Shown: positions 1 to 35,040, counted from the first letter of the stretch. The stretch: DNA of 35,040 nucleotides from Candidatus Heimdallarchaeota archaeon (GCA_027068385.1 JAMOTR010000038.1:1-35040), one strand, 5' to 3'. The notes: generated from the letters alone by a model not told the origin. Program-made: numbers and translations.

Positions 1-2
1 GG

Positions 3-179
3 GGTTACTACGAGGAGACGCGCGGGCGGAAGGAGCTTCCCATTAAGGTTCCCCCGAAGAAGATTCGGTACAAGTCCTCGCTTTATAGGATCGAGAAGAT
101 CGAGAAGGGAGCCGGTTACAACAAGCCGATAAACATGGGGAGAGAGTTCTACTACGACGATGAAGTAGCGACCGTGTGA
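3..179 (+). CDS. 3' end of a gene starting upstream of the window (unknown function)
   Basis: The frame is open from the window edge to TGA at 177-179. Translation: GYYEETRGRKELPIKVPPKKIRYKSSLYRIEKIEKGAGYNKPINMGREFYYDDEVATV. I recognise no family. Confidence 0.35.
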   Translation, partial: GYYEETRGRKELPIKVPPKKIRYKSSLYRIEKIEKGAGYNKPINMGREFYYDDEVATV

Positions 180-203
180 TCGTGCTATTTTTGGTAGCGA
201 ACT

Positions 204-212
204 ATAAAAAAG
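204..212 (+). promoter_or_regulatory. TATA-box-like element upstream of the 237 gene
   Basis: tataaaaaa lies about 25-30 nt upstream of ATG 237. This is the typical archaeal TATA spacing for leaderless or short-leader mRNAs. Confidence 0.4.
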
Positions 213-236
213 AAATTCCCTAATCGGCACGATTTT

Positions 237-1013
237 ATGGGGAATATCATCACGAGGACGACGTTTAAGGACATTAAGAACAAGGTTCGGGAGTTCGTCG
301 GATATGACGATTTGACGGCCGAAATAAGGTCCTCGGATAAGAGGTTCGAGATTCGCGATCTCTATAGGCCTATAATTTACTACACTCGCCACTACCCCGA
401 TCTTGAGCCGATATTCTTCATCGTGCTCGCCGCGATGATGTTCCGGTTCGGTTATATGTTTCGCGACTATCTCGACACCATATTACTATTTTGGGGCATG
501 GGGCTCTTCTTAGTGATAATAGCCGTTTACTTCCTTAAGACGGACCCCAGCACGTATAAGACGGTATATTCTCTATCGCTCTACGAGGACGGAGGGGAGA
601 TCGGCACGTTCGATAAAAGGGCCTTCGAGGAGCTGGGGAAAGCGTTGGACGCCCGGGTGATGAAGTCCATAAGAATCTCGCGTGATACCCTCTCGAAGCT
701 CGAGGGTAAGCCTTTGAGCGAGATCTCTTTCGAGGACGTAGAGGGGAACAAGCGGGAGATTAAGATATACGAGAACGGCAAGGCGGAAATCCTAGGGAAA
801 AAGAGGTACAAAACGTTTCTGCCTAGTAGCAGTCTCTTCTTGAAGCCGACGAAGAAGAATAGATGCCTCGTGTACCTTACGAGGGGCCCCGAGGAGGAGG
901 AAATCGCTTACGTCGACAAAGAGACGTGTGAGAGGATCCGCAAGTTCTTGAGGGAAGCTCATAGAAAGCTCGCGGATAAGGTTAGAGAAATCATAAGCGC
1001 GGGTAGTTCGCGA
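237..1013 (+). CDS. hypothetical membrane protein (two central TM helices)
   Basis: The ORF runs from ATG 237. Hydrophobic stretches are PIFFIVLAAMMFRFGYMF and LLFWGMGLFLVIIAVYFL. The only in-frame CGA (1011-1013) lies 8 codons before the standard stop (1035-1037), and I take CGA as the end. I recognise no family. Confidence 0.45.
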
Positions 1014-1059
1014 GGTTTTTTGGGAAATGAATTTTGAATGTTCGTTCATAATCAATCGT

Positions 1060-2952
1060 ATGCCGAGACTTCTCCGTGTAAACCTAACTGACGGTACTTT
1101 TAAGTTCGAGGACATTCCTGAGGACGTTCATAAGCGCTTCTTAGGCGGATTCGGTTACATAGCGTACTATCTCTTAAAGGAGGTAGATCCTAAGGTCGAT
1201 CCTCTATCGCCCGAGAACAAGCTCATGTTCGCCCCCGGAGCCTTAGTAGGAACCGGAATACCCACGGCTTCGAAGACCATGGCCGGAGCGAAGAGCCCGT
1301 TAACGGGGACGATCATGCGCTCATCCGCGGGAGCCACTATAGGGCCCGCGTTAAAGAAGGCCGGAATAGATCTTCTAATTATAGAAGGCGCTGCCGAGAA
1401 GCCCAGCTTACTCATCATAGACGACGACCACGTGGAGATCAAGAGCGCCTCTAAGTATCGGGGAATGGACGCTATAGAGGTACAGGGGCACCTAAAGGCG
1501 GACTTCGGCACCGACTTCGCCACCGCCGCCATCGGTCCCGCGGGGGAGAACTTACTACGCATAGCCGATATAGACTCTGAGGAGCGTCAGTTCGGACGCG
1601 GAGGGCTAGGAGCCGTAATGGGCTCTAAGAAGCTTAAGGCGATACTCGTGAGGGGCACTAAGGAGGTACCCGTAGCTAAGCCCGACATGCTCAAGAAGCT
1701 CATAGCTAAGCGGGCTAAGATCATCAAGGAACACCCGGCTACGAAGGACGACATGAACTACGGTACCGCCGAGTTCTTCGACCGGATGAACCGCGAGCGC
1801 GGAACGTTCCCCTCCCGCAACCGGCAGCGGGGCTATCGGAAGACCTGCGTGGACCTAAAGGAGCCTCATAAGTGTCCCGTAGATCCTTATAACCGGGCCC
1901 CGAAGTATACCGTAGAGCTTCATCCGTGTCCCAAGTGTACGAAGCCCTGTGGACGCTACATAGAGGGAGACGATACCGAAGTCGGACACTTCCGCGTGGA
2001 GGGACTCGAGTATGAGACGATATACTCGCTAGGAGGAGCTCTAGATATCACGCACTTCCCTGCCGTAGCGAAACTACACGAGATGTGCGACAGGCTGGGA
2101 ATGGACGCTATATCCGCCGGACTCACGATAGCCCGGGCTATGGAGGCGTTCGAGAAGGGCTTCCTAAAGCCCGAGGACCTAGACGGTCTAGAGCTCACGT
2201 TCGGTAATCGGAAGGCGGCCTTAGAAGCTCTGAGGAAGATGGCTTACCGCGAGGGTAAGGTCGGGGAGCTATTAGCGGACGGAGTTAAGGTAGCCGCTGA
2301 GAAGCTCGCGAAGAAGCTCGGAACCGATGAACCGCTCAAGTTCGCGATACACGTAAAGGGTATGGAGCCTCCCGCTTACGACGTACGCGGAATCAAGGGC
2401 ATGGCGCTCGCTGTAGCCGTATCGTACCGCGGAGCCGACCACTTAACGGCTGTAGTATACGGTACCGAGCTAGTAGGAAAGCGGCGGGTGTTCGAGAACG
2501 TCGATCGCACGAAGGCCGAAGGTAAGGGATTCGAGGTGAAGATACACGAGGACCTGATGGCCGTATACGACGCTACCGGCATCTGTAAGTTCTCGAGACA
2601 CATGTTCTACCTAGAGGGCATACCCGAGCTCATCGAAGCCGTATATGGACGGAGGCCCACTAATGCCGAGCTCCTAGCTATCGGAGAGAGGATCGTGAAC
2701 GTGGCGAGGCTCTTCAACGTACGCGCTGGATTCACGCGCAAGGACGACACCCTACCGCGGCGCGTGATGCACGAGCCGATACCCGAAGGACCCTCTAAGG
2801 GCATGTATGTAAGCGAAGAGGAGCTCAACAGGATGCTCGACGAGTACTACGAGGCCCGCGGACGGAGTAAGGACGGAATCCCGCTAAAGGCTAAGCTCGT
2901 AGCCCTAGATCTAATGGAGTTCCTAGATTATGGAGTAGGATCCGAGGCTTGA
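1060..2952 (+). CDS. aor: aldehyde:ferredoxin oxidoreductase family (tungstopterin enzyme)
   Basis: I moved the start to ATG 1060 (MPRLLRVNLTDG...). AOR-family motifs are present: GRGGLGAVMGSK, CPKCTKPCGRY (CxxCxxxC 4Fe-4S ligands), YRGADH and GERIVNVARLFN. There are 13 in-frame CGG codons, no TGG and no CGA. CGG falls on family Trp positions (IA-CGG-AMEAFEKG, YYEARG-CGG). Confidence 0.9.
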   Translation: MPRLLRVNLTDGTFKFEDIPEDVHKRFLGGFGYIAYYLLKEVDPKVDPLSPENKLMFAPGALVGTGIPTASKTMAGAKSPLTGTIMRSSAGATIGPALKKAGIDLLIIEGAAEKPSLLIIDDDHVEIKSASKYRGMDAIEVQGHLKADFGTDFATAAIGPAGENLLRIADIDSEERQFGRGGLGAVMGSKKLKAILVRGTKEVPVAKPDMLKKLIAKRAKIIKEHPATKDDMNYGTAEFFDRMNRERGTFPSRNRQRGYRKTCVDLKEPHKCPVDPYNRAPKYTVELHPCPKCTKPCGRYIEGDDTEVGHFRVEGLEYETIYSLGGALDITHFPAVAKLHEMCDRLGMDAISAGLTIARAMEAFEKGFLKPEDLDGLELTFGNRKAALEALRKMAYREGKVGELLADGVKVAAEKLAKKLGTDEPLKFAIHVKGMEPPAYDVRGIKGMALAVAVSYRGADHLTAVVYGTELVGKRRVFENVDRTKAEGKGFEVKIHEDLMAVYDATGICKFSRHMFYLEGIPELIEAVYGRRPTNAELLAIGERIVNVARLFNVRAGFTRKDDTLPRRVMHEPIPEGPSKGMYVSEEELNRMLDEYYEARGRSKDGIPLKAKLVALDLMEFLDYGVGSEA

Positions 2953-2954
2953 AG

Positions 2955-7172: not shown

Positions 7173-8941
7173 AGGACCATCACCACCCCTATGATCACTA
7201 GGGCTATAAGGAGTATCGCGTAGCCCACGTAGCTCGTACGTAAGCGCCCGAAGTATCCTCCTAGGACGGTGAAGGCCTTAGAAACGTAAGCGTAGAAGAG
7301 GTCCACCGCCTTATCAAACTTGTATAACGCCCTTCCTAGATACACGAAGGCCTTAGCGATGATCGCGTATACGTCGTCGATGAAGTAGCGGCGATAGAGG
7401 AGATACCGTAGAGGCCTCCGAGAGGGTATATCGGACTTTATGTAGTATAATCCGAGGATGAGCCCCATCGAGGCTAATATGGTGGGGACATACTTCCGAA
7501 CCTCTATGGGGGATCCGAAGGTGTAGACGCTTACGAAGTTGTAGCCCTTCTCTAGCCGGTTTAGTAGATCGGAGTGATATAGCGGGAAGGCTAGTATCGC
7601 GATCACGAGCACGTATATGGGTCCGAGTAGTATCCGACTCTCCTTAGCCTCATAAGGCTCACCGCGGAAGTATAATAGGCTCCGGATGCGGAAGATGTAG
7701 AAGGCGGTGAGGAAGGCCGTGAGCACGGCTAAGACGTATACTCCTATGAGACCGCTATCGGCTATCGTGCTTATTACCTCTTCTTTACTATAGAACCCTG
7801 AGGTAGGGGGTATTCCCGATAGGGCTAAAGCCCCTATAAGGAAGGCTATAGCGGAGAGCTTTAGGCTGTTCCGTAGCCTATAGCGTCTAGCGTCGCGCGT
7901 GTGCGTAGCCACGATCGCCACGCCCGCGGAGAGGAACAGTAAGGCCTTGAAGAACGCGTGAGATACTAAATGATACATAGCCGCAGCGTAACCCGCTACC
8001 CCAGCGGCCATGAACATGTATCCGAGCTGTGAGATCGTAGAATACGCTAACACGCGCTTTACGTCGTTATCTACAAGGGCCATGGTCGCCGCTAGGAACG
8101 CGGTTATGGCCCCGAAGTACGACACGAACAACAAATCGAAGGTATCTAGGGTAAGTAAGGGTAAGCTCCTCACTACTAGATACACGCCCGCGTTTACCAT
8201 GGTAGCCGCGTGTATGAGGGCGGATACCGTAGTGGGACCCTCCATGGCGTCCCGAAGCCGACCTATGAAGGGTATCTGAGCGCTTTTAGCGAACGCACCT
8301 AGGACGATGAGCGTCCCTATGAGTCTCACGTTTTCGTTAAGCGTTCCTATGTAGCGTATATCTAGGGTATGAGCGTAGTAATACAAGAGGCCTATGGCGG
8401 CGATCAGTAAAACGTCTCCGATGCGCGTAGTGATCATCGCCTTAGCGGCCGCGGGACCGGTAGTAGTCTTACGATTCCGGAACCCTATTAGGGCATAAGA
8501 ACATAACCCGACTAGCTCCCGAGCCGCGAAGATGAGTAGAAGGTGGGGGGTCGAAACTAGTAGGAGCATCGATCCTATGAAGAGGGTGATTAGGGAGTAG
8601 TAGCGGTTGAGGCCGTAGGCCCCGTGCTCTCCGGTCATATATCCGGGGCTATAGAGGACCACTAGAAACCCTATGAACGATACTAACAAGACCATCACAG
8701 CCGATACGGAGTCGATATAGTAAGGGGTAATCTTAAATCCCCGCAGATTAACTTCCTCGCCTACGAGATTCGAGGAGTCCAGGACTACCTCCTTAAACGC
8801 TTTGATCGAGAGAATTAAGGAGCTAAGCACCGCTAAGGCGGATAGGAGGAACCCTACGGAGCGCCCGCGACGGCCCGTTAATAGTATGAAAGGCGAGGTA
8901 AAGATCGGGATGAGATAGATAAGCTCCGGCCGTGATAGCAT
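7169..8941 (-). CDS. nuoL: complex-I antiporter-like subunit L
   Basis: 590 aa. AA-CGG-ELVGLCSYALIGF-CGG matches the NuoL/ND5 WE.VG...LIGFW signature. Also AYSTISQLGYM and HAFFKALLFL. Confidence 0.85.
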   Translation of the reverse strand: MLSRPELIYLIPIFTSPFILLTGRRGRSVGFLLSALAVLSSLILSIKAFKEVVLDSSNLVGEEVNLRGFKITPYYIDSVSAVMVLLVSFIGFLVVLYSPGYMTGEHGAYGLNRYYSLITLFIGSMLLLVSTPHLLLIFAARELVGLCSYALIGFRNRKTTTGPAAAKAMITTRIGDVLLIAAIGLLYYYAHTLDIRYIGTLNENVRLIGTLIVLGAFAKSAQIPFIGRLRDAMEGPTTVSALIHAATMVNAGVYLVVRSLPLLTLDTFDLLFVSYFGAITAFLAATMALVDNDVKRVLAYSTISQLGYMFMAAGVAGYAAAMYHLVSHAFFKALLFLSAGVAIVATHTRDARRYRLRNSLKLSAIAFLIGALALSGIPPTSGFYSKEEVISTIADSGLIGVYVLAVLTAFLTAFYIFRIRSLLYFRGEPYEAKESRILLGPIYVLVIAILAFPLYHSDLLNRLEKGYNFVSVYTFGSPIEVRKYVPTILASMGLILGLYYIKSDIPSRRPLRYLLYRRYFIDDVYAIIAKAFVYLGRALYKFDKAVDLFYAYVSKAFTVLGGYFGRLRTSYVGYAILLIALVIIGVVMVL

Positions 8942-9302: not shown

Positions 9303-9746
9303 ATGGGCGTAGGTGATCGGATTCGCGGTCACAGCCTTCGGCCCGTTCACTTCTGTACGGGATGCTGTTCGATGGAGATGCTAGCCTCAATAAGCTCGGA
9401 GTTCGACGTAGAGCGCTACGGAGTAATGCCGATGCCCACTCCTAGGCAATCGGACGTGTACTTCATCTCCGGTCTCATAACGAAGAAAGCTCTACCGATA
9501 GCGAAGCGCGTGCGGAATCGGATGCCCGAGCCTAAGCGGGTAATAGCCGTAGGCGCTTGTGCCGCGGGCGGCGGGCTATATCGGGACTCGTACTCGGTAG
9601 TAAACGATGTGCCGAAGCATTTCCCGATAAAGGTGTTCGTGCCCGGATGTCCCCCGAGGCCGGAGGCGATCATAAAGGGTCGGGTAAAGCTACGTAAGAT
9701 ACTAATGGGGGTGGCGAAGAATGGAGGAAAGAATAAGTCCGAACGA
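9303..9746 (+). CDS. nuoB: complex-I subunit B (N2 Fe-S subunit)
   Basis: Motifs CCSMEM, GACAAGGG and PGCPP (cluster N2 cysteines). SL-CGG-P and PK-CGG-VI fall on the conserved LWP and PKWVI tryptophans. In-frame CGA at 9744-9746 is followed two codons later by TAG (9750-9752). Confidence 0.9.
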
Positions 9747-10116: not shown

Positions 10117-11291
10117 TGGGTATGATGGAGTTAGGATCCCGGGAGAAGGACGGTAAGGTATATTACGACTTCATGTTAAATCGGGGTCCCCAACACCCTG
10201 GATATGGCCCCGTGAGGCTTATAGTGAAGGTTAACGGGGATTATATCGAGGACGCTCGGCTCGATCCCGGATACGTCCACAGAGGCTTAGAGAAGCTTAT
10301 GGAATACCGCACGGCACTACAGAACATACCCCTAGCCGAGAGGGCGTGCTTCATCGATTCGATAAACTCTACGCGGGCGTACGTGATGGCCGTTGAAAAG
10401 CTCGTGGGAATAGAAGTGCCGGAGTACGTTGAGGTTCTACGCACGCTAGCCGGAGAACTTAACCGTATCGTGAGCCACTTAACCCGGCTCGGTATGGCCG
10501 GAGGGGCGATGAGTCAGCACACCGCGTTCATGCGGAGCATCAAGGCGCGCGAGCGCGCTTTAATAGCTCTAGAAGCCTTGACGGGAGGGCGCTACGGAAC
10601 CGAGTTCATCATACCGGGCGGTCTCACGAACGATATGCCTCAGGATCTTCCGGATATTATAGAGCGCGAGTTCAAGAAGATCGAGGAACGCCTTAAGGAC
10701 GTAGAAACCGTGCTCCTAAAGAATAGGATCTTCCAGAGCCGCTTAATAGGGGTCGGAATACTAAAGCCCGAGGAGGCTATAGAGTTAGGCGTAACGGGCC
10801 CCTCTTTACGCGGATCCGGGGTGAGGTACGACGTGAGGGAAGCGGACGGCTACGGCTATTATAAGGAGATAGACTTCGAGCCCGTGGTGGCGGAGAAGGG
10901 GGACATATACGAGATAGGCGATTGTTACGCTAGAGTTCGGGTACGCTATCAGGAAATACGGAGGAGTATGGAGATGGTGCGTAAGCTCGTTAAGATCGCA
11001 CAGAGCTTCCCGAAGAACGAGAGGAAGATACTCGCGATTCCGAAGCCTCGCGTGGCTACGCTAACGTTCGAACCCGGTGAAGCTTACGCTAGGACCGAGC
11101 GGGCACGTGGGGAGATGTTGTATTATATCGTAGCGAAGAAGAAGGGACCTTACCCCTATAGGGTAAAGATCAAGTCCCCATCCCCCACGCTCATGCAGGC
11201 GTTCCTAAAGCTCATTAAAGGCGTACGCATAGCCGACATCCCCGCTATACATCTTAGCTTAGACGAGTGCCCAGGGGATCTGGATAGGTGA
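10116..11291 (+). CDS. nuoD: complex-I subunit D (49 kDa)
   Basis: I set the start at ATG 10116, which overlaps the nuoC stop; the longer track ORF from 9972 is out-of-frame overlap with nuoC. Motifs: GPQHP, GYVHRGLEKL, GVTGPSLRGSG, GDCYAR, PYRVKIKSPS. There are 9 CGG codons, no TGG and no CGA. Confidence 0.9.
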   Translation: MGMMELGSREKDGKVYYDFMLNRGPQHPGYGPVRLIVKVNGDYIEDARLDPGYVHRGLEKLMEYRTALQNIPLAERACFIDSINSTRAYVMAVEKLVGIEVPEYVEVLRTLAGELNRIVSHLTRLGMAGGAMSQHTAFMRSIKARERALIALEALTGGRYGTEFIIPGGLTNDMPQDLPDIIEREFKKIEERLKDVETVLLKNRIFQSRLIGVGILKPEEAIELGVTGPSLRGSGVRYDVREADGYGYYKEIDFEPVVAEKGDIYEIGDCYARVRVRYQEIRRSMEMVRKLVKIAQSFPKNERKILAIPKPRVATLTFEPGEAYARTERARGEMLYYIVAKKKGPYPYRVKIKSPSPTLMQAFLKLIKGVRIADIPAIHLSLDECPGDLDR

Positions 11292-12259
11292 TGGGTATGG
11301 AGAAGCGGATGATGTTAGTGTTCTTCCCCGGTGCGACCTCGTTTATCTTATACTCTATGCTCTCTATGCGGTTAGAGAGGAAGACCTTAGCGAGGATACA
11401 CTCGAGGATAGGGCCGAAACACGCGGGACCGCGGGGAATCCTACAGACGCTCTACGACCTACTAAAGGTTCTCATCAAGCAGCTCATCATACCGAGGCGC
11501 GCGGATAAGCTCGCGTACGTAATAGTCCCCCAGCTCGCTATAGTCTTCCTAGGAGTCGCTCTCATGGCTATGCCCATACGGCCTCAGGGACCGTTCCTAG
11601 AGATTCCACACTCCCTCTTATTCGTCGCGGCCGTGTTTACGGCTATGCCCGTTATCTTCGCTGTAGCCGCGCGGTCGACTATGAACAAGTACTCTATTAT
11701 GGGCGGAGCTAGGAGCATCATATCGTTCGTGGCCTTTGAGACCGCTAAGCTCGTTACGATCGCCTCCATAGCTCGGCTCGTAGGGTCTCGGGACTTGGAG
11801 GCTATATTAGAGCGGCAGAACTCTCACGGACCCCTCGCCTTATATCTACCGCTAGCGTTTATCGTGCTCCTAATCGTCACGCTAGTAGAGACGGAGAGGC
11901 CTCCGTTCGACGCTCCCGAAGCCGAGCCTGAGGTAGCCTTCGGACTCGCTACCGAATACACGAGCGTGATGTTAGCGGTGCGCATAGCTACCGGATACGT
12001 AACGCTATACGCCTTAAGCTCTCTACTTTCGATACTCTTCTTGGGCGGATACTACGGGATCCCTATAGGCCCCATAGGAGAGAAGTCCGTGCGGTGGTTC
12101 ATCCTAAAGCTAGCGTTCGTGACGCGGCTCTTCTTCGTGCTTCGCGGAGGTCTAGCGCGCTATAGGCCTGATCAAATCGCCCGCTACGGACGGCGCATCG
12201 CGATGGTGCTAGCGTACATAAACTTACTTCGGGCCGGATATCTAGTGCTACGGAGGTGA
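11291..12259 (+). CDS. nuoH: complex-I subunit H
   Basis: Motifs LERKTLARIHSRIGP, GP-CGG-GILQ, A-CGG-STMNKY (GWASNSKY), ERPPFDAPEAEPE and RYRPDQIARYG-CGG-R (RFGWK). ATG 11291 overlaps the nuoD TGA; GTG 11288 is an alternative start. Confidence 0.9.
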   Translation: MGMEKRMMLVFFPGATSFILYSMLSMRLERKTLARIHSRIGPKHAGPRGILQTLYDLLKVLIKQLIIPRRADKLAYVIVPQLAIVFLGVALMAMPIRPQGPFLEIPHSLLFVAAVFTAMPVIFAVAARSTMNKYSIMGGARSIISFVAFETAKLVTIASIARLVGSRDLEAILERQNSHGPLALYLPLAFIVLLIVTLVETERPPFDAPEAEPEVAFGLATEYTSVMLAVRIATGYVTLYALSSLLSILFLGGYYGIPIGPIGEKSVRWFILKLAFVTRLFFVLRGGLARYRPDQIARYGRRIAMVLAYINLLRAGYLVLRR

Positions 12260-12678: not shown

Positions 12679-13091
12679 TCGAGGAAGTCGTGCTCCTATT
12701 AGCGGCATTTTTCGCTACGCTAGCCGCTTTAAGTCGTGACGACGTATACGCTTCGTTTAGCTTGGGTACCGCTATACTCTTCGCTTCCCTATATGTACTC
12801 GATTACATCTCGACGCTAATAGGAATCATCATCTTCGCGATTTATACCGGATCCGTGGTAGCGCTCGTGTTCATGGGATACGCGGAGGAAAAGAGCGGAC
12901 TCTCGAAGCTCGTCGCCATAGCCTTACCGCTAGCGTTCGCTATAGCCGTGGCCGTATACAAGTATATCCCCGCCGCTTCCGTGGGTCATGCTGAGGTCTC
13001 GATAGATGTACTAAAGGAGCTCATCATACCTATAGCGGGAGGTCTCGCGGCCGTAATAGTTAGCTCTCAGGAGGTGAGGAATGGTGCTCGA
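12675..13091 (+). CDS. nuoJ: complex-I subunit J
   Basis: A hydrophobic protein of about 138 aa in the canonical position between nuoI and nuoK. In-frame CGA at 13089-13091 lies just after the nuoK ATG. The standard-code frame would run on to TAA 13146-13148, overlapping nuoK by 68 nt. Confidence 0.7.
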
Positions 13092-13496: not shown

Positions 13497-13772
13497 TCAC
13501 GTTACGATCTCTACGTACGGATGTAGCCTTATCTGTCCGGGAACGCCTTTCTCGAACCTCACGAGTACGCGGTCCTTCTTGTTTGATCCCCGTACACGTA
13601 TCACGCGACCCTTTATGACTACCTTTCCATTAGGGTGCCTCCGTATTACCTTCTTCCCTAGAAGCTCGTGAGCCTTTACTCCCTCGGGTATCCTCACGAT
13701 CACCGTGTCGGGTCTATATAGCGTGACCTGAGAACGCTTCTTAAGACGGAAGTTCACCACGTATCCCTTCAT
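13497..13772 (-). CDS. rpl35ae: ribosomal protein eL33 (L35Ae)
   Basis: I set the start at ATG 13772 (MKGYVVNFR...). GKKVI-CGG-RHPNGKVVIKGRVIRVRGSNK..RFEKGVPGQ is the typical archaeal L35Ae pattern. The track's 5' extension to 13889 contains two in-frame CGA codons (13773-13775, 13779-13781). Confidence 0.8.
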   Translation of the reverse strand: MKGYVVNFRLKKRSQVTLYRPDTVIVRIPEGVKAHELLGKKVIRRHPNGKVVIKGRVIRVRGSNKKDRVLVRFEKGVPGQIRLHPYVEIVT

Positions 13773-13804: not shown

Positions 13805-14341
13805 TTATCGGGGAAAGAGCATAGCGAGGAGTATTCCGACGATCAATTCGGCCGCGAGTATAGTTACCCGAGGTCTTAGTAACGAACAACGATCGCCTCT
13901 CGGCTCGAGGGAGTATAGGGGAAAACCGTAGATAAATATAGCTATCCCAGCGATGAATAAGGAGCCTAAGGAGAACGCTCTCGGAACTATGACTTCCCGA
14001 AAGGCCCCGTGTAACCCTGCGGAGAGTACGATTTTATCGATCTCACACCCGCTTTTAATCGTATAGCGCGACCGTAGATAGAAGTGTACTAAGAATATCG
14101 GTACGCTACGCACCCGATCATGTATTAAGCTATGAGCCTCGCCATGTAGGCCCCCTCCGAGATAATAAGCGATGGTTTCCTCTATTACTATAAAAGGAAG
14201 AACGAATGACCGGAACCTCACTCTTCTTATTAATAATATGTAGTACGAGAACAACGCTCCGAGATATATTATAAGTCTATGATCCGATACCGCTAGCACA
14301 AGAGCGGAGATTATTACGTAGAGATGGAGGAGCCTTCTCAT
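13805..14341 (-). CDS. hypothetical polytopic membrane protein
   Basis: A 178-codon ORF, strongly hydrophobic, with the His-rich motifs GGGLHGEAHSLIHD. The last sense codon is CGA (13808-13810), directly followed by TAA. Confidence 0.45.
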   Translation of the reverse strand: MRRLLHLYVIISALVLAVSDHRLIIYLGALFSYYILLIRRVRFRSFVLPFIVIEETIAYYLGGGLHGEAHSLIHDRVRSVPIFLVHFYLRSRYTIKSGCEIDKIVLSAGLHGAFREVIVPRAFSLGSLFIAGIAIFIYGFPLYSLEPRGDRCSLLRPRVTILAAELIVGILLAMLFPR

Positions 14342-14480: not shown

Positions 14481-15377
14481 TCAAATCCCTAAGATGAGGT
14501 CCTCAAACACGGCTATAGCGGTCCGCATCCTATTTTCGGCCTGCTCGAAGACGACGCTGTGCTCTTCGTCCTCGAACACGTCGTCCGTTACTTCCTCTCC
14601 TACGTGTCTCGGTAAGCAGTGCATGAAGATATAATCCTCGTGAGCGTGCTTAACGAGCTCAGCGTTTACCTGATACGGCCTCAAGAGTTGTTTCTTCTTT
14701 TCCGCCTCGGCTTCCTGTCCCATCGATACCCGAACGTCCGTGTATATCACGTGCGCCCCCTTCACGGCTTCCACGGGGTCCTCGGTGATGTGTAAGCGAT
14801 CGCCGCATACCTCAAGGACGAGCTTATCCGGTTGTAGCTCCTTAGGGGTAGCGATCCGCATCTCCGCTCCTAGCTTACACGCGCCTATAGCTAAGGAGTT
14901 AGCTACGTTCGAGGACCCGTCTCCTACGAACGCTATCTTTAGTCCGCTGATGCGGTTAAAGTGCTCATATATGGTCATAAGATCGGCTAGAGCCTGAAGC
15001 GGATGGAAGCGATCGCTTAAGGCGTTGATCACGGGCACATCGCTCCGCTCAGCGAGCTCCTCTAGATCCTTATGAGAGTATACTCTAGCCGTTATTCCGG
15101 AGACGTAACGCGATAGGACGCGGGCGAAGTCCTTGATGGGCTCTCCGCGGGATAGCTGGGTCGTCCTAGCCTCTAGGTATATGGGATGTAGCCCTAAGTA
15201 AGCGGCGGCCGCCTCTAGGGATACGCGAGTACGCGTAGAGGGCTTCATGAATATTAGCGCTACGGACTCGCCCGTAGGAGTCGAAGCGGGCGTGGGGTTA
15301 TACTTATGATCTAAGGCGTTATTAATCCGTCTCCGAATGTCTCCCTCAGAATAATCCGCGAGAGTTAAGAGGTGCAT
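14481..15377 (-). CDS. argF: ornithine carbamoyltransferase
   Basis: Motifs STRTR, SRGEP, HPLQ, DV-CGG-VSMGQE (the DVWVSMG motif distinguishes OTC from ATCase) and HCLP. The likely start is ATG 15377 (MHLLTLADY); the track start at 15392 is a GTG. Confidence 0.9.
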   Translation of the reverse strand: MHLLTLADYSEGDIRRRINNALDHKYNPTPASTPTGESVALIFMKPSTRTRVSLEAAAAYLGLHPIYLEARTTQLSRGEPIKDFARVLSRYVSGITARVYSHKDLEELAERSDVPVINALSDRFHPLQALADLMTIYEHFNRISGLKIAFVGDGSSNVANSLAIGACKLGAEMRIATPKELQPDKLVLEVCGDRLHITEDPVEAVKGAHVIYTDVRVSMGQEAEAEKKKQLLRPYQVNAELVKHAHEDYIFMHCLPRHVGEEVTDDVFEDEEHSVVFEQAENRMRTAIAVFEDLILGI

Positions 15378-15405: not shown

Positions 15406-15936
15406 ATGCATGCCTTAATGGAGCTTGAACTCTTAGAACCAGCGGTCTTAACGCGCGTGAAGCCTAGGGACGTAGAGTTCTTCTTAAGGAAGGCCCTCCA
15501 GCGGTATTCGAGAAAGAGAGGGGTAGCGCTCGACGTTTCGATAGAGTTTGAGCCCATAGAGGGTGATCTTATAGAGATCGTCGCGAGGAAGTTTCCGGGT
15601 AATGAAAGGAAGCGCGTGAAGGCTTTAAGAACGGGTATCGTAAGCGTGGAAGCGAACGTAGAACCGGTAGAAGCTCTAATGTATCTTAACGAGCCGTCCG
15701 GCCCGTTGAGTTTCTTCCGTAAGGCGTGCCACCATACGAGAAACTATCTCAAGGCGCTCGCGCGTAAGAACGTTATAAGACGCTTCGTGATACCGTGCGA
15801 GCTCACTAATCTAGCGCTCGGTTATCTAGTACCGCCCCGGTTCCTCGGAAGGAAGGAAGAGAGTATACGGCTATGGCGCGACGATAGGGGTTTCCGGCAC
15901 GTGTTCGGTCTAGCTAGGATCTCGATAACGTTACGA
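15406..15936 (+). CDS. hypothetical protein
   Basis: The ORF runs from ATG 15406 and its codon usage resembles that of its neighbours. In-frame CGA at 15934-15936 lies 7 codons before the standard TAA (15955-15957). I recognise no family. Confidence 0.4.
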
Positions 15937-15959: not shown

Positions 15960-16982
15960 ATGGAGTCGCCTAGACCTTTAGATACCGTAAGGTATATAGA
16001 AGAGCAGAAGGCGGTGAAGCTCATAAATCAGCGTAAGCTCCCGGAGACTTTTGAATACTTTACCGCTAAGACCGTAGAGGACGTTGCTTATGCTATAAAG
16101 AACATGATCGTACGCGGTGCTCCGGCGATAGGTATCACGGCCGCTTACGGCATGAAACTATTCGCGGACACATACAAAGGAAAGGACTTCGAACACGACG
16201 CTAGGAGAGCTCTGGAATTATTGAAGCGTACTAGACCCACGGGTAAGAACCTCTTCCGGGCGCTGAACCACATAGAGAAGGCGATAGATAAGGGGCCCGA
16301 GGCCGTAATAAAAGCCGCTGATGAGGTGGTGGAGAAGGAAAAGGAATATGAGAGGCGCATAGCAGATCGGAGCCTAAAGTTCGTGGAGATGATCTCGGAG
16401 AAGCTAGGAAAGAAGGAAATCACGTTCCACACGCATTGTAACGCCGGTCGTTTAGCCACTTACGGTCTCTTCGGTACGGCTACAGCCCCGATATATGTAG
16501 CACATCGGAACGGATATCGCGTACGGGCGATCGTGGATGAAACCAGACCTGTGCTTCAAGGCGCCCGTCTCACGGCCCGGGAACTTAGCGTTGCGGGAAT
16601 AGATACCACCGTGATACCCGACACCGCTATAGGGTTAGCGTTGATGAAGGGCTTAAGCGACGTGGTCGTCGTAGGGGCCGATCGCGTGTGTAAGGATCGG
16701 TCCGTGACGAACAAGATAGGAACGTATGTGCTCGCCACGCTCGCTAAGAGGCATAACGTCCCGTTCGTCGTAGTAGCCCCTACGTCCACGTTCGACGAGT
16801 GTACCTTCGACAATCCACCGCCCATCGAGGAACGCGACGAGCGCGAGGTGCGTTACATACGTGACGTGAAGATCGTTCCGGACGGTGCGAGAGTGTTGAA
16901 CTACGCGTTCGACATCACCCCCGCTGAACTAATAAACTACGTGATAAGCGAAAAAGGGATTCACGAGGTGAACCCTATATGA
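15960..16982 (+). CDS. aIF-2B-like family isomerase (methylthioribose-1-phosphate or ribose-1,5-bisphosphate isomerase)
   Basis: Motifs VRGAPAIG, RPTGKNLF-CGG-AL (RPTAVNLFWAL), HCNAG, DETRPVLQGARLTA-CGG-EL (RLTAWEL) and NKIGTY. I cannot distinguish M1P from R15P specificity by eye. Confidence 0.8.
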   Translation: MESPRPLDTVRYIEEQKAVKLINQRKLPETFEYFTAKTVEDVAYAIKNMIVRGAPAIGITAAYGMKLFADTYKGKDFEHDARRALELLKRTRPTGKNLFRALNHIEKAIDKGPEAVIKAADEVVEKEKEYERRIADRSLKFVEMISEKLGKKEITFHTHCNAGRLATYGLFGTATAPIYVAHRNGYRVRAIVDETRPVLQGARLTARELSVAGIDTTVIPDTAIGLALMKGLSDVVVVGADRVCKDRSVTNKIGTYVLATLAKRHNVPFVVVAPTSTFDECTFDNPPPIEERDEREVRYIRDVKIVPDGARVLNYAFDITPAELINYVISEKGIHEVNPI

Positions 16983-24814: not shown

Positions 24815-25680
24815 TGAATAAATCGAAAACTATAAAGGCGTTTATTTTGGAACCCTTAGGCCCTTTCTACGGATACATCCCCACGAGTTTAACGCTCTAT
24901 AGAGCGTTGTTAGCGCTAGAAAAGAGCGGCCTAATAGACCTTAAGGACGGCTTCTCCATCGCTGGAATCTTCGCATACGACCCTAAGAACGATCTCTTGT
25001 ACTTACCGTCGGATTCCCGGATTCTAGCGCTCAAAGACGCGACCATCGATAATTATAAGATAAACGTCCCGGAGAGCCTTTACGTTCCGTTCGAGTCCTC
25101 CATGAAGTCTTACTTTGCGCTCGTGAAGGGGAAGAACGAGTATGAGGTAAGGGTCGAATACCCCTTCTTACTCACACTTTCCGCTAGGATAAACGTCTCT
25201 CGCTCCGCGTTTACGTCGTATGGAACCGGGCGCGTAGCATATAATCGCATGTATCTATCGAGGTTTAAACGGGCGATCTTAACGGACCTAGATAAGAACA
25301 TCATAAGGCTCTTAGGCGAGTTTGGGGTCGGTAACTATAAGTCCATAGGGGGCGGGGCGTTCGAGATAATAGGCGAACGCGAGGTGGAGATAAAGCCCAT
25401 TAATGTACAAAAGAAGCTCGAAGGTTACGACCTCGAGTACTCGCCCCTCGACTTCCCCCTAAATTACGGGATCGGGAACGTGCGGGAGATGCGTACGAGG
25501 ATATTCGACGGATCCTCTAGGATTAAGATAGTGAGGTACTTAGCGGGGGGATTAATAAAGAAAGACGCCCTCAAAGACGACCGGCCTCAGGCGTTTCGGG
25601 GGAGTACGTTCCCGCGTATAAAAGGAAACGATTGTCCACGCGCCCGCTTAATAAGGGGATTCCCATTTCTAAAGAAACGA
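24814..25680 (+). CDS. cas5: Cas5-family RAMP protein (Csm4/Cmr3-like)
   Basis: ATG 24814 overlaps the cas7 TGA (TGATG). The N-terminal AFILEPLGPFYGYIPTSLTLYRALL resembles Csm4 (l.p.sp.h.G ... sDTLfsAl). Also FSIAGIFAY, LLYLPSD and the glycine-rich loop FGVGNYKSIGGGAFEI. In-frame CGA at 25678-25680 ends it 45 nt before the convergent kae1 stop; the standard frame runs to 25737 and would overlap kae1. Confidence 0.6.
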
Positions 25681-26742: not shown

Positions 26743-27531
26743 TCGTTCTCCTCTCCTTCTTAGCTTCTCGTATATCTTCGGGCTCCGTACTATCATAAGT
26801 ATATTAAAGAACATGGCCTCGATCGCGAACGCGAAGGACCTCCGATCGAAGAACCCTCCGAAGGTCCGGAGGACGAAGGAGGGTATGTAGAACACGAGGG
26901 CGAGGGCGGATAAGATCCTGTAGAGCGTGACGTATCCCGCGGATCCCAGAACCCCTATAACGAACACGATCACGCCCATGAGCTGTAGGGAAGAGGCATA
27001 TGGGCCCGAGACGTGAAGCGATATCGTCGCTCCGGAGATGAAGTATCCTACGCTCGAGAGGGCTCCGAGAATTATCGGTACATAATAAGATAATAGAGCT
27101 AAGAGCGCTAATAACGTCCCTAAGAGCCGAAGACCTACCCCTACGCCTAAGACCATCTGAAGGGACTCGGTGAACCTGCCCTGGGCGATCGCTTCCTTCA
27201 ACGTAGGACCTAAGGATATCACGCGTAAGGCTAACACCGACGCGCTAATGCCGGCCCCGACCGAGATCATGAACCTAGCGGGAAACACAGCGTTCGTGAG
27301 GTATATAAGGCCTCCGATAAGGACGGAGAAGCCTCCCAAGTATGCGATGAAGTACAAGACGTTGAGTATAGTCGTCCCTTGTTCCTCCGTAATATACCCG
27401 TACGTCTTCAAATAAGCGACTATCTGAGCGTATATACCCGGATCCCCTACAGCGTTTACGAGCACCAAGATTATCCCTCCCAGGATGGCGAAGATTGGTT
27501 GAAGGATGTATTTGGGCCTTTTCACGATCAT
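26743..27531 (-). CDS. hypothetical polytopic membrane protein
   Basis: 262 codons, about 7 hydrophobic helices. It ends at in-frame CGA 26743-26745, 9 nt before the kae1 ATG. The standard-code track fuses it to Kae1 as a 601-aa ORF. Confidence 0.5.
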
Positions 27532-27562
27532 AATAATAAAAAGATGATTAAATACGATCGCG

Positions 27563-28888
27563 TCGGATATAACCCAAGCGCGTGAGTTCCCTTTCTAGCT
27601 CGCTTAACGATATCTCGGATTCTAATCCCCGTTTCTCTAGAGCGACGCGAAACTCCTCGCTTTCCCTCGCGATTTCCTCTTTCGTATGTCCATCGAGAGC
27701 CCCTTTAAACGCGTCTAGCATAGCCTTCACGCCCGCTTTGATGCCCTTTGGATGTCCCACTATCGCGCGACCGACGAGGTATATGACGTCCCTAAACCCC
27801 ATGTTTATCGCGTCATAAGCTAGTGAGGGAGTTATTCCGGATCCTATTAGCGGTATCGTCTTTCCTATAGGACCTTCGCCCGCTAAAGCGTTATAAGCGC
27901 TCCGAACTGTGTATAAGTCCTTCTTATGAGAACCTACGGGAGGAGGTATCTGTGCTATGTCTGCTCCTGAGATACGTTCGAACAGCGCTAACACGGCCGC
28001 GTTAAACCCTCTCGGACTATCTATTAGCGCGGAGAATCCGGAATTCCTAGTGTATACTGGGACGTCGAACTCCCTTACGACTTCGTTTATCTCGTCGTAA
28101 CTCGCGTACATCGAGGGAATAAGCACGCCTAACCTCTCCACGTCTAATTTTTCTAAGGCCTTAAGAACCGTGCTTAACGTCCTCTTTGGGTCCCTAGATC
28201 CTATATTTAAGAAATAGAAGACGTACTCGTTCTTCGACTTTTTAATTTCGTTGAGGATCCTCTTAGCTCTGTCTATCCTCTTCGAGTACTTCGGATCTAG
28301 GAGCTTCTCGTCGTCCGCTATCATATGAACGCCCGCTTCGGCTACGTCGCGCGCTAGCTTAGCGTATTGATCCGAGGTGAGACCTAGAGAGGGCTTCATG
28401 ATGAACCCTAAATAGGGCCCTGGGCCCCGGATCTTTCTAAGATAATCGGACCTCAAAGGACCCCCGAACCTCTTTAGTATATTCTCCGGAAACTCTATCG
28501 ATGTGATCTTTATGCTACGCACGGACGCGGAATCGAGCAGATCACCCGCGATATATACGAGTATATCGTCGAACGAAATATCTTTGGAGAGATGTACGGT
28601 AGGGTATTCTATTTCTACGATGCCTATATCGACGATGCTCTCGCCTCCATTATGATCGCTCACCACCTTCGATCCTATTGGATCGACGTGCCTCACTACG
28701 GCGCCGTATTTCTTTATGTCCTCCTTGTCGATGCCCAGAACCGAAAATATAACGTCCGTCACTCCGGCTATGCTCAAACTCTGTTCGTCCGCGAGGTGAC
28801 TAGCTATCTCATATAACTTCCCTCTATTATCGGGAGTCGTTTCGACCAAATAGCGCACTCTTATCGTACCGTTTTTCTTAATGGGCAC
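27563..28888 (-). CDS. RuBisCO large-subunit-like protein (divergent, form IV-like; non-carboxylating)
   Basis: It aligns by eye to archaeal form III RbcL. FPENILKRFGGP, YLGFIMKPSLGLTS (the KPK.G motif with the second Lys changed to Ser) and GVHMIADDEKL (DF.KDDE with the carbamylated Lys changed to Ala, GCG at 28316-28318). Also LIGSGITP, VGHPKGIKAGVKA and VALEK-CGG-G (ALEKWG). The start is tentatively GTG 28888, 9 nt after the phosphomutase CGA. The end is at CGA 27563-27565, 4 codons before TAA. Confidence 0.7.
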
Positions 28889-28897
28889 GAAAAAACA

Positions 28898-30244
28898 TCG
28901 TTTAGCTTCTTTTATTATTTCCTCGAGCTTTCTCTTAAACTCCTCCGCGCGCTCCTTAGAGCGAGCTTGAATGTATATGCGAAGCTTCCCTAATTCCGTT
29001 CCCGACTTCCTTACTAGTATCCGCTCACCGTCTCCCAACACTTTTATTCCGTCTATGAGGTCCTTCTTCCGCTTGTATTTGTGGCTCCGCTCCAGTAGTT
29101 GGTGCATGAGGCGCATATATACAATATCTATGCGGCTCGGATCTATGCGGTACGTCCTTCTTATACCGTAATACTTCGGTAACCTAGAAAGACGGTCTTC
29201 GAGACCCTCTTCGACCACCTTCGCGAGTATGCATGCCGAAAGTATACCGTCGTACCGCGCCCCATAAGAGGGTATCATATGTTTCCACGGTTCGGTGGCC
29301 ATGAGGACGTCGTTAATCATAGAGTAGACGATGTCCGGAAGGTAACCGAGCTTGTAGCGGTATACCTTTAGTCCGTATTTCTTAGCTATCTCTTCCGCTA
29401 CGTCTAGAGTATCCACCGAAAGTACCACAACGCGCCTTCCGCGACGCCTTTTAGATACCTCCTCGAGTATTAATGAGGCCGTATAGCTTTGGTCCACGAA
29501 CCTTCCCCTCGGATCTATTAAAGCTAGCCTATCACCATCGCCGTCCAGAGCCATAGCCGGCACGCCCAAACTCCTCGCTATGTTCATAGTATCCTTAAGG
29601 TTCTCCTCGCTAGGTTCGGGCATACGCCCGGGGAAGAATCCGTCCGGTTGGGCGTTCACGTCTATAACCTCGGCCCCTAGTTCCCTCAGAGCCCTCGTAG
29701 CTATCACACCAGCGGCTCCATTAGATCCATCTATAATTACCCTAATCTCCTTCTCCAACGGTTCTACAAATGAGAATAGATGCTCTAGATATTCGTCCAC
29801 GACTTGGTCGGAGATGTCCACATACTTCGGTTCAAGCCTCCGGTCGAACCTCGGTTCAGGCTCCTTCCGATAGTCCTGAAGCATATTTTCTTGTATAGAG
29901 GTAAGCTCGCGCCCGTTCACGAAGATCTTGAACCCGTTATACTCTGGGGGGTTATGGGATGCCGTAACGAGCACCCCTACACCGTTTAACTTCCCAGAAG
30001 CGAAGGCTACTACGGGATAAGGGGCGAGACCGGCATAATATACTTCCGCCCCCATCGCCCCTAAACCGGACATCAACGCACTCGCGAGCACGGGAGACGT
30101 CTTGCGGGAATCTATGCCCACGACTACTTTAGAAGCATTATCGAACGCCTTAGCGATCGTAACGCCCAACTTAAACGCCATATCTGTGGTGATGTTCTTA
30201 CCGAAGATGCCTCTAATGCCCGAAGTACCGAAACGTAGACTCAT
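28898..30244 (-). CDS. alpha-D-phosphohexomutase superfamily enzyme (phosphoglucomutase / phosphomannomutase / possible phosphopentomutase)
   Basis: ATG 30244 (MSLRFGTSGIRG). Motifs: TASHNPPEYNGFK (active-site Ser loop), ALDGDGDRLALID (Mg site) and GTELGKLRIY. Ending at CGA 28898-28900 gives 448 aa, the normal size. The track start at 30358 would overlap the divergent gene. Confidence 0.85.
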
Positions 30245-30296
30245 ATATGGAGTCGTTCGTTGTTTATCTTCAATAACATCTCGATAACAACCCATC

Positions 30297-33074: not shown

Positions 33075-33497
33075 ATGGCCCTGGATAATCTTAAGAAGAA
33101 ATATAAAGACCTAGAGGAGGTCCTCACGTTCTTAGAGGAGGCGAGCGAGTCCTTCGATCGGATAGCCGCGGGTAGACGCTCCGATAGGGAAGCAGAAACG
33201 ATAGAAGAAGCCGTTAAAGAGGCGCTAGAAGAGGACGTTCAGTCCATATATGTAAGAGAGGCGGACGTCACGTTATCGCGCGTCCCTATAGATGGCTCGG
33301 AAAGTATACCTTCGCTCATCGATAAGGTAGAGAACGAATTGGGAGGCTACGATCCTGTGACTAGTCTCGTGCGTGAGATATCTAAGCTCTCCGCGATAAT
33401 ATGCGAAAACCCGAACGTGCTCCTTAACGCTTCTCCGGACGCTTTAGCGGGCCTTCTTTACTACCTAAGGATGGTCCTCAACAAGAAGAAAGAATAG
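33075..33497 (+). CDS. hypothetical acidic helical protein
   Basis: A 140-aa ORF with predicted coiled/helical character (LKKKYKDLEEVLTFLEEASESF). I recognise no family. Confidence 0.4.
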   Translation: MALDNLKKKYKDLEEVLTFLEEASESFDRIAAGRRSDREAETIEEAVKEALEEDVQSIYVREADVTLSRVPIDGSESIPSLIDKVENELGGYDPVTSLVREISKLSAIICENPNVLLNASPDALAGLLYYLRMVLNKKKE

Positions 33498-33572
33498 GCA
33501 CGTTTTTAGAGCTCAAAAAAGATTCCTCTAAGCGGTTTTCGTATAGGTACTAGGGCTAAAAGGGTTAGAACT

Positions 33573-33580
33573 TTAAAAAC
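33573..33580 (+). promoter_or_regulatory. TATA-box-like element upstream of the 33600 gene
   Basis: tttaaaaa is centred about 24 nt upstream of ATG 33600 in a 102-nt intergenic spacer. Confidence 0.4.
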
Positions 33581-33599
33581 AACCGTAACACCCTTAAGT

Positions 33600-34385
33600 A
33601 TGCCCGGTTCGCTAGTAATCCCTGACGTCTCGGCTAGGAAGCTCTATGAGTACCGGGTAGCGGGTAAGTCCGCCGACGAAGTAGGAGGGAATTATGGACG
33701 TGCCATTCGCGTATTAGAAGAACTTGGCGTGGAAAGAAGGCCGGACATGACCTACCCCGAGTTCGTAGAGGCCGTACGGAACGCGATGCCTGATAACATC
33801 AAGAGCGCCTTCACGATCGCCTACAGCCTCGTAAGCTCCGTCGGAAAGGTAACCCCCGACTCCCTATACTCCGTAGCCCGCCGCTTAAAGCGGGTAGGAA
33901 TACGCAAGGTCACCCTCGGCTTCCTACTAGGACTGCTCAAGGGAATCAAGATACCTGGTCCCGCTAGGATACCCACCGGATCCTTCGATGAGGACCCCGT
34001 GGCCGTAACGCTAAACGAGCTAGGTGGAATCGCTAAGGTGCGCGACGTCGTTAAGAGGCTAGAGAATAAGGGATACAAGGAGCCCAGGAAGCTACTCGTG
34101 GACTCCTTCCTAAACAAGAAGTTCTTCCCCATCCCCGAGGGCAAGCGTAGTCCTACCCTACCGCCTCACCGGTACGAGGTGCTCAAGCTAGCTATCGAGA
34201 AGGGATCCGTAGAGGAGACCACGGACGAGTTCATCAAGATCTCCGTACCTAAGACGGAGCTAGAGGACGCCGAGATGAAGCACTTCAATGCCGTCACCGG
34301 CCTAGTGGAGGATCGCGACGCTGATTACCTAGTGCTCGTCCCCATCAAGGATAACATACGCATAATCAGCGAGAAGCTCCTATGA
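33600..34385 (+). CDS. hypothetical protein (possible helix-turn-helix / winged-helix modules)
   Basis: A 261-aa ORF with no in-frame CGA. I recognise no family. Confidence 0.4.
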   Translation: MPGSLVIPDVSARKLYEYRVAGKSADEVGGNYGRAIRVLEELGVERRPDMTYPEFVEAVRNAMPDNIKSAFTIAYSLVSSVGKVTPDSLYSVARRLKRVGIRKVTLGFLLGLLKGIKIPGPARIPTGSFDEDPVAVTLNELGGIAKVRDVVKRLENKGYKEPRKLLVDSFLNKKFFPIPEGKRSPTLPPHRYEVLKLAIEKGSVEETTDEFIKISVPKTELEDAEMKHFNAVTGLVEDRDADYLVLVPIKDNIRIISEKLL

Positions 34386-34416
34386 TTTTTGATCCCGAAT
34401 TTTTAGCGTTTTACTT

Positions 34417-35040
34417 ATGAAGGTAGTTGAGGTAGACGAGAAGCGTAAGATGATTAAGGTTGTACCCGAAAACGTCGAGGATCTGTATCTCTTATCTCAG
34501 ACGATCCTACCGGGAGATCGCGTATTAGCTAGGACGACTAGAAAGATCAAACGCGAAGACGGGGAGAGTAAACGTATACCCATGGATCTAGAGATCGAGG
34601 TCGAGAGTATAGGGTTCCACGAGTTTGGGGGCTTACGCATACACGGTCGCATCGTGAGGGGCCCGAAGAATTTAGTCCCTATAGGCTCTTATCATACGAT
34701 TACGATCAACAAATACCAAGAGCTTACGATATTCAAGTCACGCGGGTTCGAGAGCGCGCTTAAGAAGTTCGAAGAGGCTTCCTTGCCCCCTAAGAAGGTG
34801 CTCATTATATCATTAGATCACGATGAGGCGTCGATCGTGTTACTAGACGGAAGGAACATGGAGACGGTCGCGGAGATTAGATCGAACATACCCGGGAAAC
34901 ATTATCAGACGGGAGAGAAATACGATAGCCTCATCAAAGCATATTTCTCCGAGATACTTAGGGAGGCGAAGAAGTACGAGAACGTGGACGGAATCATCGT
35001 AGCAGGCCCGGGACAGATAAAGGAAGATTTCTTAGAACGG
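34417..35040 (+). CDS. pelA: Pelota (aDom34) mRNA-surveillance factor, 5' part (runs off the window)
   Basis: ATG 34417: MKVVEVDEKRKMIKVVPENVEDLYLLSQTILPGDRVLARTTRKIK... and later DGIIVAGPGQIKEDF, a typical archaeal Pelota N-terminal and central region. The frame is open to the window end and is absent from the ORF track because it has no stop. Confidence 0.8.
   Translation, partial: MKVVEVDEKRKMIKVVPENVEDLYLLSQTILPGDRVLARTTRKIKREDGESKRIPMDLEIEVESIGFHEFGGLRIHGRIVRGPKNLVPIGSYHTITINKYQELTIFKSRGFESALKKFEEASLPPKKVLIISLDHDEASIVLLDGRNMETVAEIRSNIPGKHYQTGEKYDSLIKAYFSEILREAKKYENVDGIIVAGPGQIKEDFLER

Follow-up and report, generated by a model that had tools for sequence, protein, structure and literature searches.

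CGG as a tryptophan codon and CGA as a likely fourth stop codon in an archaeal lineage from marine hydrothermal vents

Introduction

A change of CGG from arginine to tryptophan in archaea was described by Melnykov (bioRxiv 10.64898/2026.04.02.715157, 6 April 2026) for two metagenome-assembled genomes (MAGs), GCA_027068385.1 and GCA_964414255.1, which both originate from marine hydrothermal vents, belong to one Njordarchaeales family and have a GC content near 50%. The change was detected with KACI and confirmed by Codetta, and GCA_964414255.1 was reported to contain a tRNA(CCG) without the Arg identity base A20; a lack of tRNA(UCG) was reported as well. CGA was missing from the domains matched by hidden Markov models, and its possible use as a stop codon was left to a 'separate investigation' (bioRxiv 10.64898/2026.04.02.715157). 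Here we analyze the use of CGG and CGA in a contig of the first of these MAGs (Candidatus Heimdallarchaeota archaeon, JAMOTR010000038.1, positions 1–35,040), hereafter the window, which comprises 35,040 bp with 51% GC. Our initial annotation of the window had taken the change of CGG to be undescribed in archaea, a view overtaken by the preprint on the same family; no other paper on this archaeal code change was found in a literature search. The meaning of CGG as Trp is therefore already known from the preprint. New here are the positional, comparative and coding-potential evidence for CGA as a stop codon, and a further species (species B, ERZ27262679) as well as more samples that carry the trait. 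The window shares with the preprint MAGs the same codon change, a GC content of about 50%, CGG as the dominant Trp codon and the lack of CGA in domains. In contrast to the preprint, where CGG was inferred statistically and CGA was only raised, CGA is mapped here to gene ends, tRNA overlaps, gene fusions and the stop positions of orthologues.

Among bacteria, CGG is translated as Trp in Anaerococcus and RFN20 Bacilli, and CGA together with CGG in Absconditabacteria (Codetta; Shulgina and Eddy 2021, PMC8629427). As in the window, Arg codons of the CGN box were captured by Trp, the anticodon is one mutation away from that of tRNA-Trp(CCA), and the change was deduced from conserved alignment columns. 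However, the bacterial genomes have a GC content of 0.26–0.38 and the codon is rare (PMC8629427), whereas the window has 51% GC, is rich in CG and makes heavy use of CGG. A further difference is that CGA would become a terminator here and not a Trp codon. In Mycoplasma capricolum CGG is unassigned (Oba et al. 1991, as cited in PMC8629427). There too a CGN codon lost its decoder, which is a plausible intermediate stage, but the codon vanished, whereas in the archaeal lineage both CGR codons would have acquired new and heavily used meanings.

The genes of plant organelles, whose transcripts undergo C-to-U editing, likewise have CGG at positions of conserved Trp and CGA in place of an expected UGA stop. 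Further outcomes of plant editing are Leu or Phe from Pro and Ser codons, Tyr from His, Cys from CGY and an AUG start from ACG; no such change was seen here. In vertebrate mitochondria AGA and AGG, Arg codons without a cognate tRNA, are found at the ends of genes, in human in two genes only. The use of an Arg codon at gene ends is common to both systems; the vertebrate case is organellar, while the present one concerns about 41% of the genes of a free-living archaeon, and a -1 frameshift is impossible at CGA, the -1 codon being NCG.

Results

CGG is found at tryptophan positions

In the 31 long open reading frames (ORFs) of the window (11,055 codons) we counted only 10 in-frame TGG, as opposed to 181 CGG, 24 CGA and 613 remaining Arg codons (~5.5%). 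CGG accounts for 1.6–1.8% of all codons. When about 38 kb of flanking sequence from a 206-kb contig of the ENA assembly ERZ27262635 with 99.9% identity to the window were included, the 66 genes in about 73 kb comprised 325 CGG and 23 TGG as Trp codons (CGG ~93%). TGG is completely missing from AOR, NuoD, the NuoM-like and MtnA-like genes, the M20 peptidase and a 1049-aa ORF, which bears out the initial annotation in calling these six products free of Trp under the standard code. The depletion of TGG is limited to the sense frame (8 TGG and 161 CGG in frame 0, 191 TGG and 269 CGG in frame +1), and a change acting on the duplex motif is thereby ruled out. The occurrence of the effect on both strands, from which a codon-level phenomenon had first been concluded, is by itself no valid argument, as a TGG/CCA motif change in duplex DNA would look identical; it is the reading frame that decides. 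A chemical or enzymatic conversion of TG to CG that is blind to the frame or follows the duplex motif is excluded by the frame counts and by the standard meaning of NCG codons followed by a purine.

For a test of conserved positions AOR was aligned with 118 homologues and eight Nuo subunits with the products of 80 nuo loci, a homologue set that stems from a NuoD scan of a genome collection (best matches in Thermoproteota, 40–43% identical), in which this organism's own genome did not turn up. Columns with at least 80% consensus were pooled, giving 818 columns. CGG was the sole codon to deviate from the standard code, with Trp in 16 of 21 CGG columns. Conserved Arg columns are encoded by CGC (26), AGG (15), AGA (4), CGT (2) and in one case CGG, at amino acid 282 of NuoD. 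In AOR all nine Trp-dominated columns are occupied by CGG, while none of its 14 CGG codons (13 by the earlier count, which was one short) falls into an Arg-dominated column; the conserved Arg residues of AOR are encoded by CGC, CGT, AGA or AGG. The conserved Trp columns of the Nuo subunits comprise eight CGG and one TGG, the latter in NuoH, from which Trp is seen to have two codons with TGG as the minor one.

Alignments to PDB chains place CGG at Trp positions in six more families (OTC, CutA, ATPase B, MtnA, L35Ae and RuBisCO-like protein), in ATPase B at the Trp of an LG-W motif; the coordinates of individual sites are given in Table 1. The first CGG of the CutA tandem is aligned to Arg in the PDB chains, and its reading as Trp depends on a YWWEG motif which we take to be present in P. 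horikoshii CutA. All 19 CGG codons listed in the initial annotation are indeed CGG when read in frame with the gene given there, but AOR 2650 (a Met/Phe/Leu column) and NuoH 11432 (a mixed aromatic column) do not lie in Trp-dominated columns. The accompanying statement that conserved Arg is never encoded by CGG stands in so far as CGC, CGT, AGA and AGG track the Arg columns, and fails at NuoD amino acid 282. Its central claim, that CGG is read as Trp at the codon level, was upheld by the 16 of 21 columns, by frame specificity and by recurrence in independent assemblies, and is the best-supported reading of these comparisons.

The same locus was recovered with 99.9–100% identity in the ENA assemblies ERZ27262635 and ERZ27262631 and in the Logan assemblies SRR7968109, SRR7968106 and SRR32938003/4/9. 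Strains differ mostly by synonymous third-position single-nucleotide polymorphisms (SNPs), and among about 50 of these no TGG/CGG or TGA/CGA polymorphism was present. In species B AOR is 89% identical in amino acid and 83% in nucleotide sequence, with 14 of 14 CGG kept and no TGG. A third species, C (GCA_964414255.1, also in ERZ27262668), likewise has CGG at those Trp sites that were aligned, and CGA at gene ends as well; its contig CAYPVV010000042.1 is syntenic with the flanks of the window over five genes with 47–81% amino acid identity. Judged by these alignments, CGG as Trp is a clade-wide trait of three related species. The protein collection held no closer outgroup, the next matches being about 60% (AOR), 70% (ATPase B) and 35% (TFB paralogue) identical.

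CGA is found at gene ends

The presence of CGA at gene ends is a second, companion change that the initial annotation had missed. In-frame CGA occurs only upstream of true start codons, at C-terminal ends, or at gene junctions within ORFs of implausible length. Not a single CGA stands between a supported start codon and the first terminator after it, in comparison to 273 in the +1 frame and 436 in the +2 frame. Of the 35 window genes, 12 have CGA as their first terminator, and over the 66 genes in 73 kb the first terminators are TGA (32), CGA (27, ~41%), TAA (4) and TAG (3). The spacing between CGA and the canonical stop that follows in frame looks random (median about 14–15 codons, maximum 449), so that these canonical stops do not serve as true gene ends. 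Per codon, the coding log-odds amount to +0.59 within gene bodies and +0.46 just before CGA, and drop to -0.16 after it (17 tails, 423 codons). The 423 tail codons contain seven further CGA, as opposed to none in about 19,000 codons of gene bodies.

The most direct evidence for CGA as a stop is provided by the stop positions of orthologues. In three of four complete pairs between this species and GCA_964414255.1, CGA is interchangeable with a canonical stop: the TFB paralogue and GGR end with CGA here and with TGA in the relative, while a 202-aa protein ends with TAG here and with CGA there.

Several genes illustrate what the standard code would imply. After the CGA at 1011–1013 the next standard stop is found seven codons on, inside the AOR gene. 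The CGA of CutA coincides with the end of the PDB CutA chains (102–113 aa), and under the standard code the ORF would be 64 codons longer and run through the tRNA-Ser gene. On the minus strand the standard code yields a false 601-aa fusion (25726–27531) with the TsaD domain beginning at residue 296, and a false 936-aa PGM-RuBisCO ORF in which the PGM domains extend to residue 479 and RuBisCO_large begins at residue 646. Public gene calls contain a single 898/936-aa 'PGM + RuBisCO_large' (27548–30358, minus strand) and the 601-aa 'TsaD', each of which really is two genes. The PGM terminator lies within CGATG (28896–28900, minus strand), which recalls TGATG stop-start overlaps; this ATG, however, belongs to another frame than the RuBisCO-like gene, whose probable start codon is a GTG located four codons downstream. 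In the flanks CGA ends the genes for aIF2-beta, PGK, a PNP-family protein, Pelota, GatD, PhoU, GGR and a class II aminoacyl-tRNA synthetase. Pelota ends with CGA where the PDB Pelota chains end, and otherwise its ORF would enter the tRNA-Lys gene.

Taken together we regard a variant code with CGG as Trp, CGA as fourth stop beside TGA, TAA and TAG, and Arg encoded by CGU, CGC, AGA and AGG as very probable on the strength of these comparisons. With somewhat less confidence, CGA is likely to be a genuine and efficient stop that ends about 41% of genes.

Alternative explanations

Among the alternatives, the one that fares best, though we consider it unlikely, is that only CGG was reassigned while CGA is unassigned and avoided, so that the canonical stop that follows is the real gene end, or ribosomes stall and are rescued without true termination. 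The preprint says of CGA only that it is missing from HMM domains, several CGA are followed by a canonical stop within 0–7 codons, and the 206-kb contig has a gene for Pelota shortly beyond the window end; Pelota is, however, universal in archaea. Against this alternative stands the random distance to the next stop, with read-through that enters tRNA-Ser and tRNA-Lys genes and fuses unrelated proteins, as well as the exact alignment of CGA with TGA or TAG in orthologues and the loss of coding signal beyond CGA. Non-productive stalling at 41% of gene ends would moreover be very costly. A -1 or +1 frameshift at CGA onto a standard stop was rejected, as these shifts would give NCG and GAN.

Somewhat less probable still is C-to-U mRNA editing of the plant-organelle type, by which transcripts would carry UGG and UGA and the standard code would be intact. 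Such editing has the appeal of covering both CGG and CGA by a single mechanism, and there is a precedent in plant mitochondria, where a CGG/Trp signal proved to be editing. Yet the other candidate codons keep their standard meaning in the alignments: CCN corresponds to Pro in 55 of 60 columns, CGC to Arg in 26 of 29 and CAC to His in 12 of 15, ACG still corresponds to Thr and GCG to Ala, and TCN, CAY and CGY also match the standard residues. Where CGR lies out of frame (NCG followed by a purine), the standard residue was found in 36 cases and the 'edited' one in 2, with some other residue in 14 more, so that an editing activity would have to select thousands of in-frame sites singly. Nor would editing need the tRNA(CCG) without Arg identity that the preprint reports in the relative. 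Given the codon tests and these tRNA findings, reassignment is much more likely than editing.

We consider an artefact of sequencing or assembly, or a T-to-C change introduced in silico into TGG and TGA, highly improbable. The window-wide excess of CG and depletion of TG and CA would fit such a conversion, but TGG and TGA are intact out of frame, ATG and GTG are normal, and the identical pattern recurs in seven or more independent runs or assemblies, made with different pipelines, as well as in two diverged species; the mostly synonymous strain SNPs, moreover, are those of real genes under selection. The chance that, with the standard code in force, Arg has truly replaced Trp throughout the proteome, for which only the literal translation speaks, is negligible: such a replacement would put Arg at invariant, buried Trp positions of more than 12 unrelated families through one of six Arg codons while the other five track Arg columns, and would leave the CGA ends unexplained.

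A number of observations count against the variant code or parts of it. Among the remaining of the 21 conserved CGG columns Arg, Pro, Tyr and Gln occur once each, and a few CGG lie in Gln or Pro columns of the Nuo alignments. The Arg case is NuoD amino acid 282, where the window has E-I-CGG-AGG-S (10959–10964) and the homologues E-M-R-Q-S. This is probably a register shift by one residue or a lineage-specific substitution, judging from the alignment; alternatively it may be a sign of imperfectly clean decoding. ARAGORN and Rfam searches of ~73 kb of the contig of this species and of short contigs of species B and C detected no tRNA-Trp, tRNA-Arg or unusual tRNA, and genes for aRF1, TrpRS and ArgRS were not found in the window and the ~38 kb of flank. 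We know of no precedent for a C-initial stop codon recognized by a factor of the aRF1/eRF1 type. TGA is the commonest stop, thus CGA may be the weaker terminator, and stalling with rescue and true release at CGA are indistinguishable by sequence alone.

The only tRNAs in the ~73 kb are Ser-UGA, Glu-CUC, Leu-UAA and Lys-UUU, all four with an encoded 3' CCA and the T-arm GGGTTCRAATCCC in common. Searches of metagenomes with a D-loop and T-arm pattern for tRNA(CCG) yielded, among the matches listed, ordinary tRNA-Arg(CCG) and tRNA-Gly(UCC) of other archaea, whose flanking ORFs use normal TGG. Pelota was the sole relative of the aRF1 family in the DNA examined (~73 kb and the short related contigs) and is of the normal type.

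Proposed mechanism and dinucleotide bias

TrpRS would charge a dedicated tRNA(CCG) that decodes CGG, while loss of tRNA-Arg(UCG) would have left CGA without a decoder. Release at CGA could be brought about by an altered or additional aRF1, or alternatively the codon could be resolved by a rescue pathway. Once CGG as Trp and CGA as stop existed, a strong genome-wide avoidance of TG and CA may have moved TGG to CGG and TGA to CGA, with exceptions where the T of TGA is fixed by an overlapping start codon. By coordinates, 7 of 19 TGA stops in the window overlap an ATGA or GTGA start, and TGA may thus persist partly because its T belongs to the start codon of the next gene.

The dinucleotide odds ratios of the window are 0.51 for TG and 0.50 for CA (about two-fold depleted) and 1.37 each for CG and TA. 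The depletion of TG and CA exceeds that of all 80 archaeal and bacterial metagenomic loci compared (lowest value there 0.57) and is milder in GCA_964414255.1 (0.63–0.66). NCA codons are rare, and NNT before G is about six-fold rarer than NNC before G. We estimate from the counts that in-frame change of TGR to CGR explains only about a fifth of the TG/CA deficit. The bias was also noticed in related-species contigs (L001 and L095).

Table 1. Coordinates of CGG sites, proposed CGA terminators and tRNA genes in the window and its flanks.
Feature	Position	Strand	Remark
AOR CGG, Trp column	1459..1461	+	Trp in 113/118 homologues
Further AOR CGG at Trp columns	starts 1711, 1783, 1822, 1894, 2134, 2482, 2485, 2863	+	
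AOR CGG, near-invariant Trp column	2863..2865	+	Trp in 117/118 homologues
NuoL CGG, Trp column	8477..8479	-	Trp 52/52
NuoL CGG, Trp column	8519..8521	-	Trp 51/52
NuoB CGG, Trp column (LWP)	9339..9341	+	Trp 64/65
NuoB CGG, Trp column (PKWVI)	9537..9539	+	Trp 53/67, Tyr 12
NuoD CGG, aa 282, conserved Arg column	10959..10961	+	AGG directly after; sole such CGG
NuoH TGG, kept at Trp column	12095..12097	+	Trp 43/59
NuoH CGG, Trp column	12191..12193	+	Trp 56/56
L35Ae CGG (VI-W)	13641..13643	-	aligned to Trp in archaeal eL33/L35Ae
OTC CGG, DVWxSMG motif	14730..14732	-	aligned to Trp of P. furiosus OTC (VIYTDVWASMGQE)
MtnA-like CGG (NLF-W-ALN; LTA-W-EL)	16257..16259; 16578..16580	+	both aligned to Trp, PDB 1t9k
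CutA tandem CGG CGG (Y-WW-KG)	17099..17104	+	second CGG aligned to Trp, PDB CutA (YRWQG)
CutA third CGG (EYIK-W)	17261..17263	+	aligned to Trp, PDB CutA (EYLDW)
RuBisCO-like CGG (ALEK-W-G)	27629..27631	-	aligned to Trp, PDB 8dht (ALEKWG)
Proposed CGA terminator, 258-aa gene starting 237	1011..1013	+	sole in-frame CGA
Proposed CGA terminator, NuoB	9744..9746	+	
Proposed CGA terminator, NuoJ-like gene	13089..13091	+	tail beyond without coding signal
Proposed CGA terminator	13808..13810	-	TAA directly after
Proposed CGA terminator, 176-aa gene starting 15406	15934..15936	+	
Proposed CGA terminator, CutA	17285..17287	+	10 nt before antisense tRNA-Ser gene
TCGA common to two convergent genes	18219..18222	+ and -	CGA 18220-18222 on +, 18219-18221 on -
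Proposed CGA terminator, gene starting 24811	25678..25680	+	
CGA between membrane-protein gene and Kae1/TsaD	26743..26745	-	Kae1 ATG 3 codons downstream
Proposed CGA terminator, RuBisCO-like gene	27563..27565	-	
CGA between phosphoglucomutase and RuBisCO-like gene	28898..28900	-	
tRNA-Ser(UGA), encoded CCA	17298..17385	-	overlapped by standard-code CutA ORF
Other tRNAs, flank segment L002	5217-5293; 7840-7926		
Other tRNA, flank segment L005	11907-11983		

Further observations on genes of the locus

In the YDQMPEPKW motif of NuoB (9513–9521, plus strand) CGG stands at a Tyr column (65/67) and at an invariant Gln column (67/67). Under the new code the residues read W-N-W, an unusual change if real.

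The plus-strand region 20807–25680 comprises the 1049-aa ORF, which has no Pfam match, followed by a RAMP-superfamily gene and another gene without Pfam match; it may be a candidate effector module of type III CRISPR-Cas (Cas10-like and RAMPs). About 2 kb past the window end a Cas4/PD-(D/E)XK nuclease-like gene with C-terminal cysteines follows a CGA junction (flank segment L005, 13379–14128, plus strand). Unlike its neighbors it uses TGG for at least two Trp codons, which points to a possible recent horizontal acquisition.

The gene for the A-type ATPase B subunit (19295–20728, minus strand) stands alone, with the other ATPase subunit genes not nearby, and encodes a 16-residue C-terminal tail with Cys and Trp that the PDB homologues do not have. 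A 704-aa ATPase B match (P0213) was considered as a CGA read-through product in a relative and was rejected, being a misassembled duplication in an archaeon with 67% GC and a normal code.

Implications

No earlier change of a sense codon is known in archaea. That of CGG took place at 51% GC and concerns a codon in heavy use, at odds with the usual account of rare codons lost in AT-rich genomes. Standard-code translations of this lineage are held in public databases, in which about 1.8% of residues are wrong (Arg for Trp) and many ORFs are falsely extended or fused, such as the 936-aa 'PGM-RuBisCO', the 601-aa 'Kae1' and CutA read through a tRNA gene; such errors spread to the annotation, phylogenies and structure prediction of a deep-branching lineage. 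If CGA is indeed a stop codon, it would represent the first case of a sense codon turned into a stop in a free-living organism. It would also mean that aRF1 or a paralogue accepts C at the first codon position and that the release factor can be retuned there. The code would then read YGG as Trp and YGA as stop, and would have evolved at balanced GC content under strong avoidance of TG and CA, unlike the bacterial codes, which arose through codon loss at low GC.

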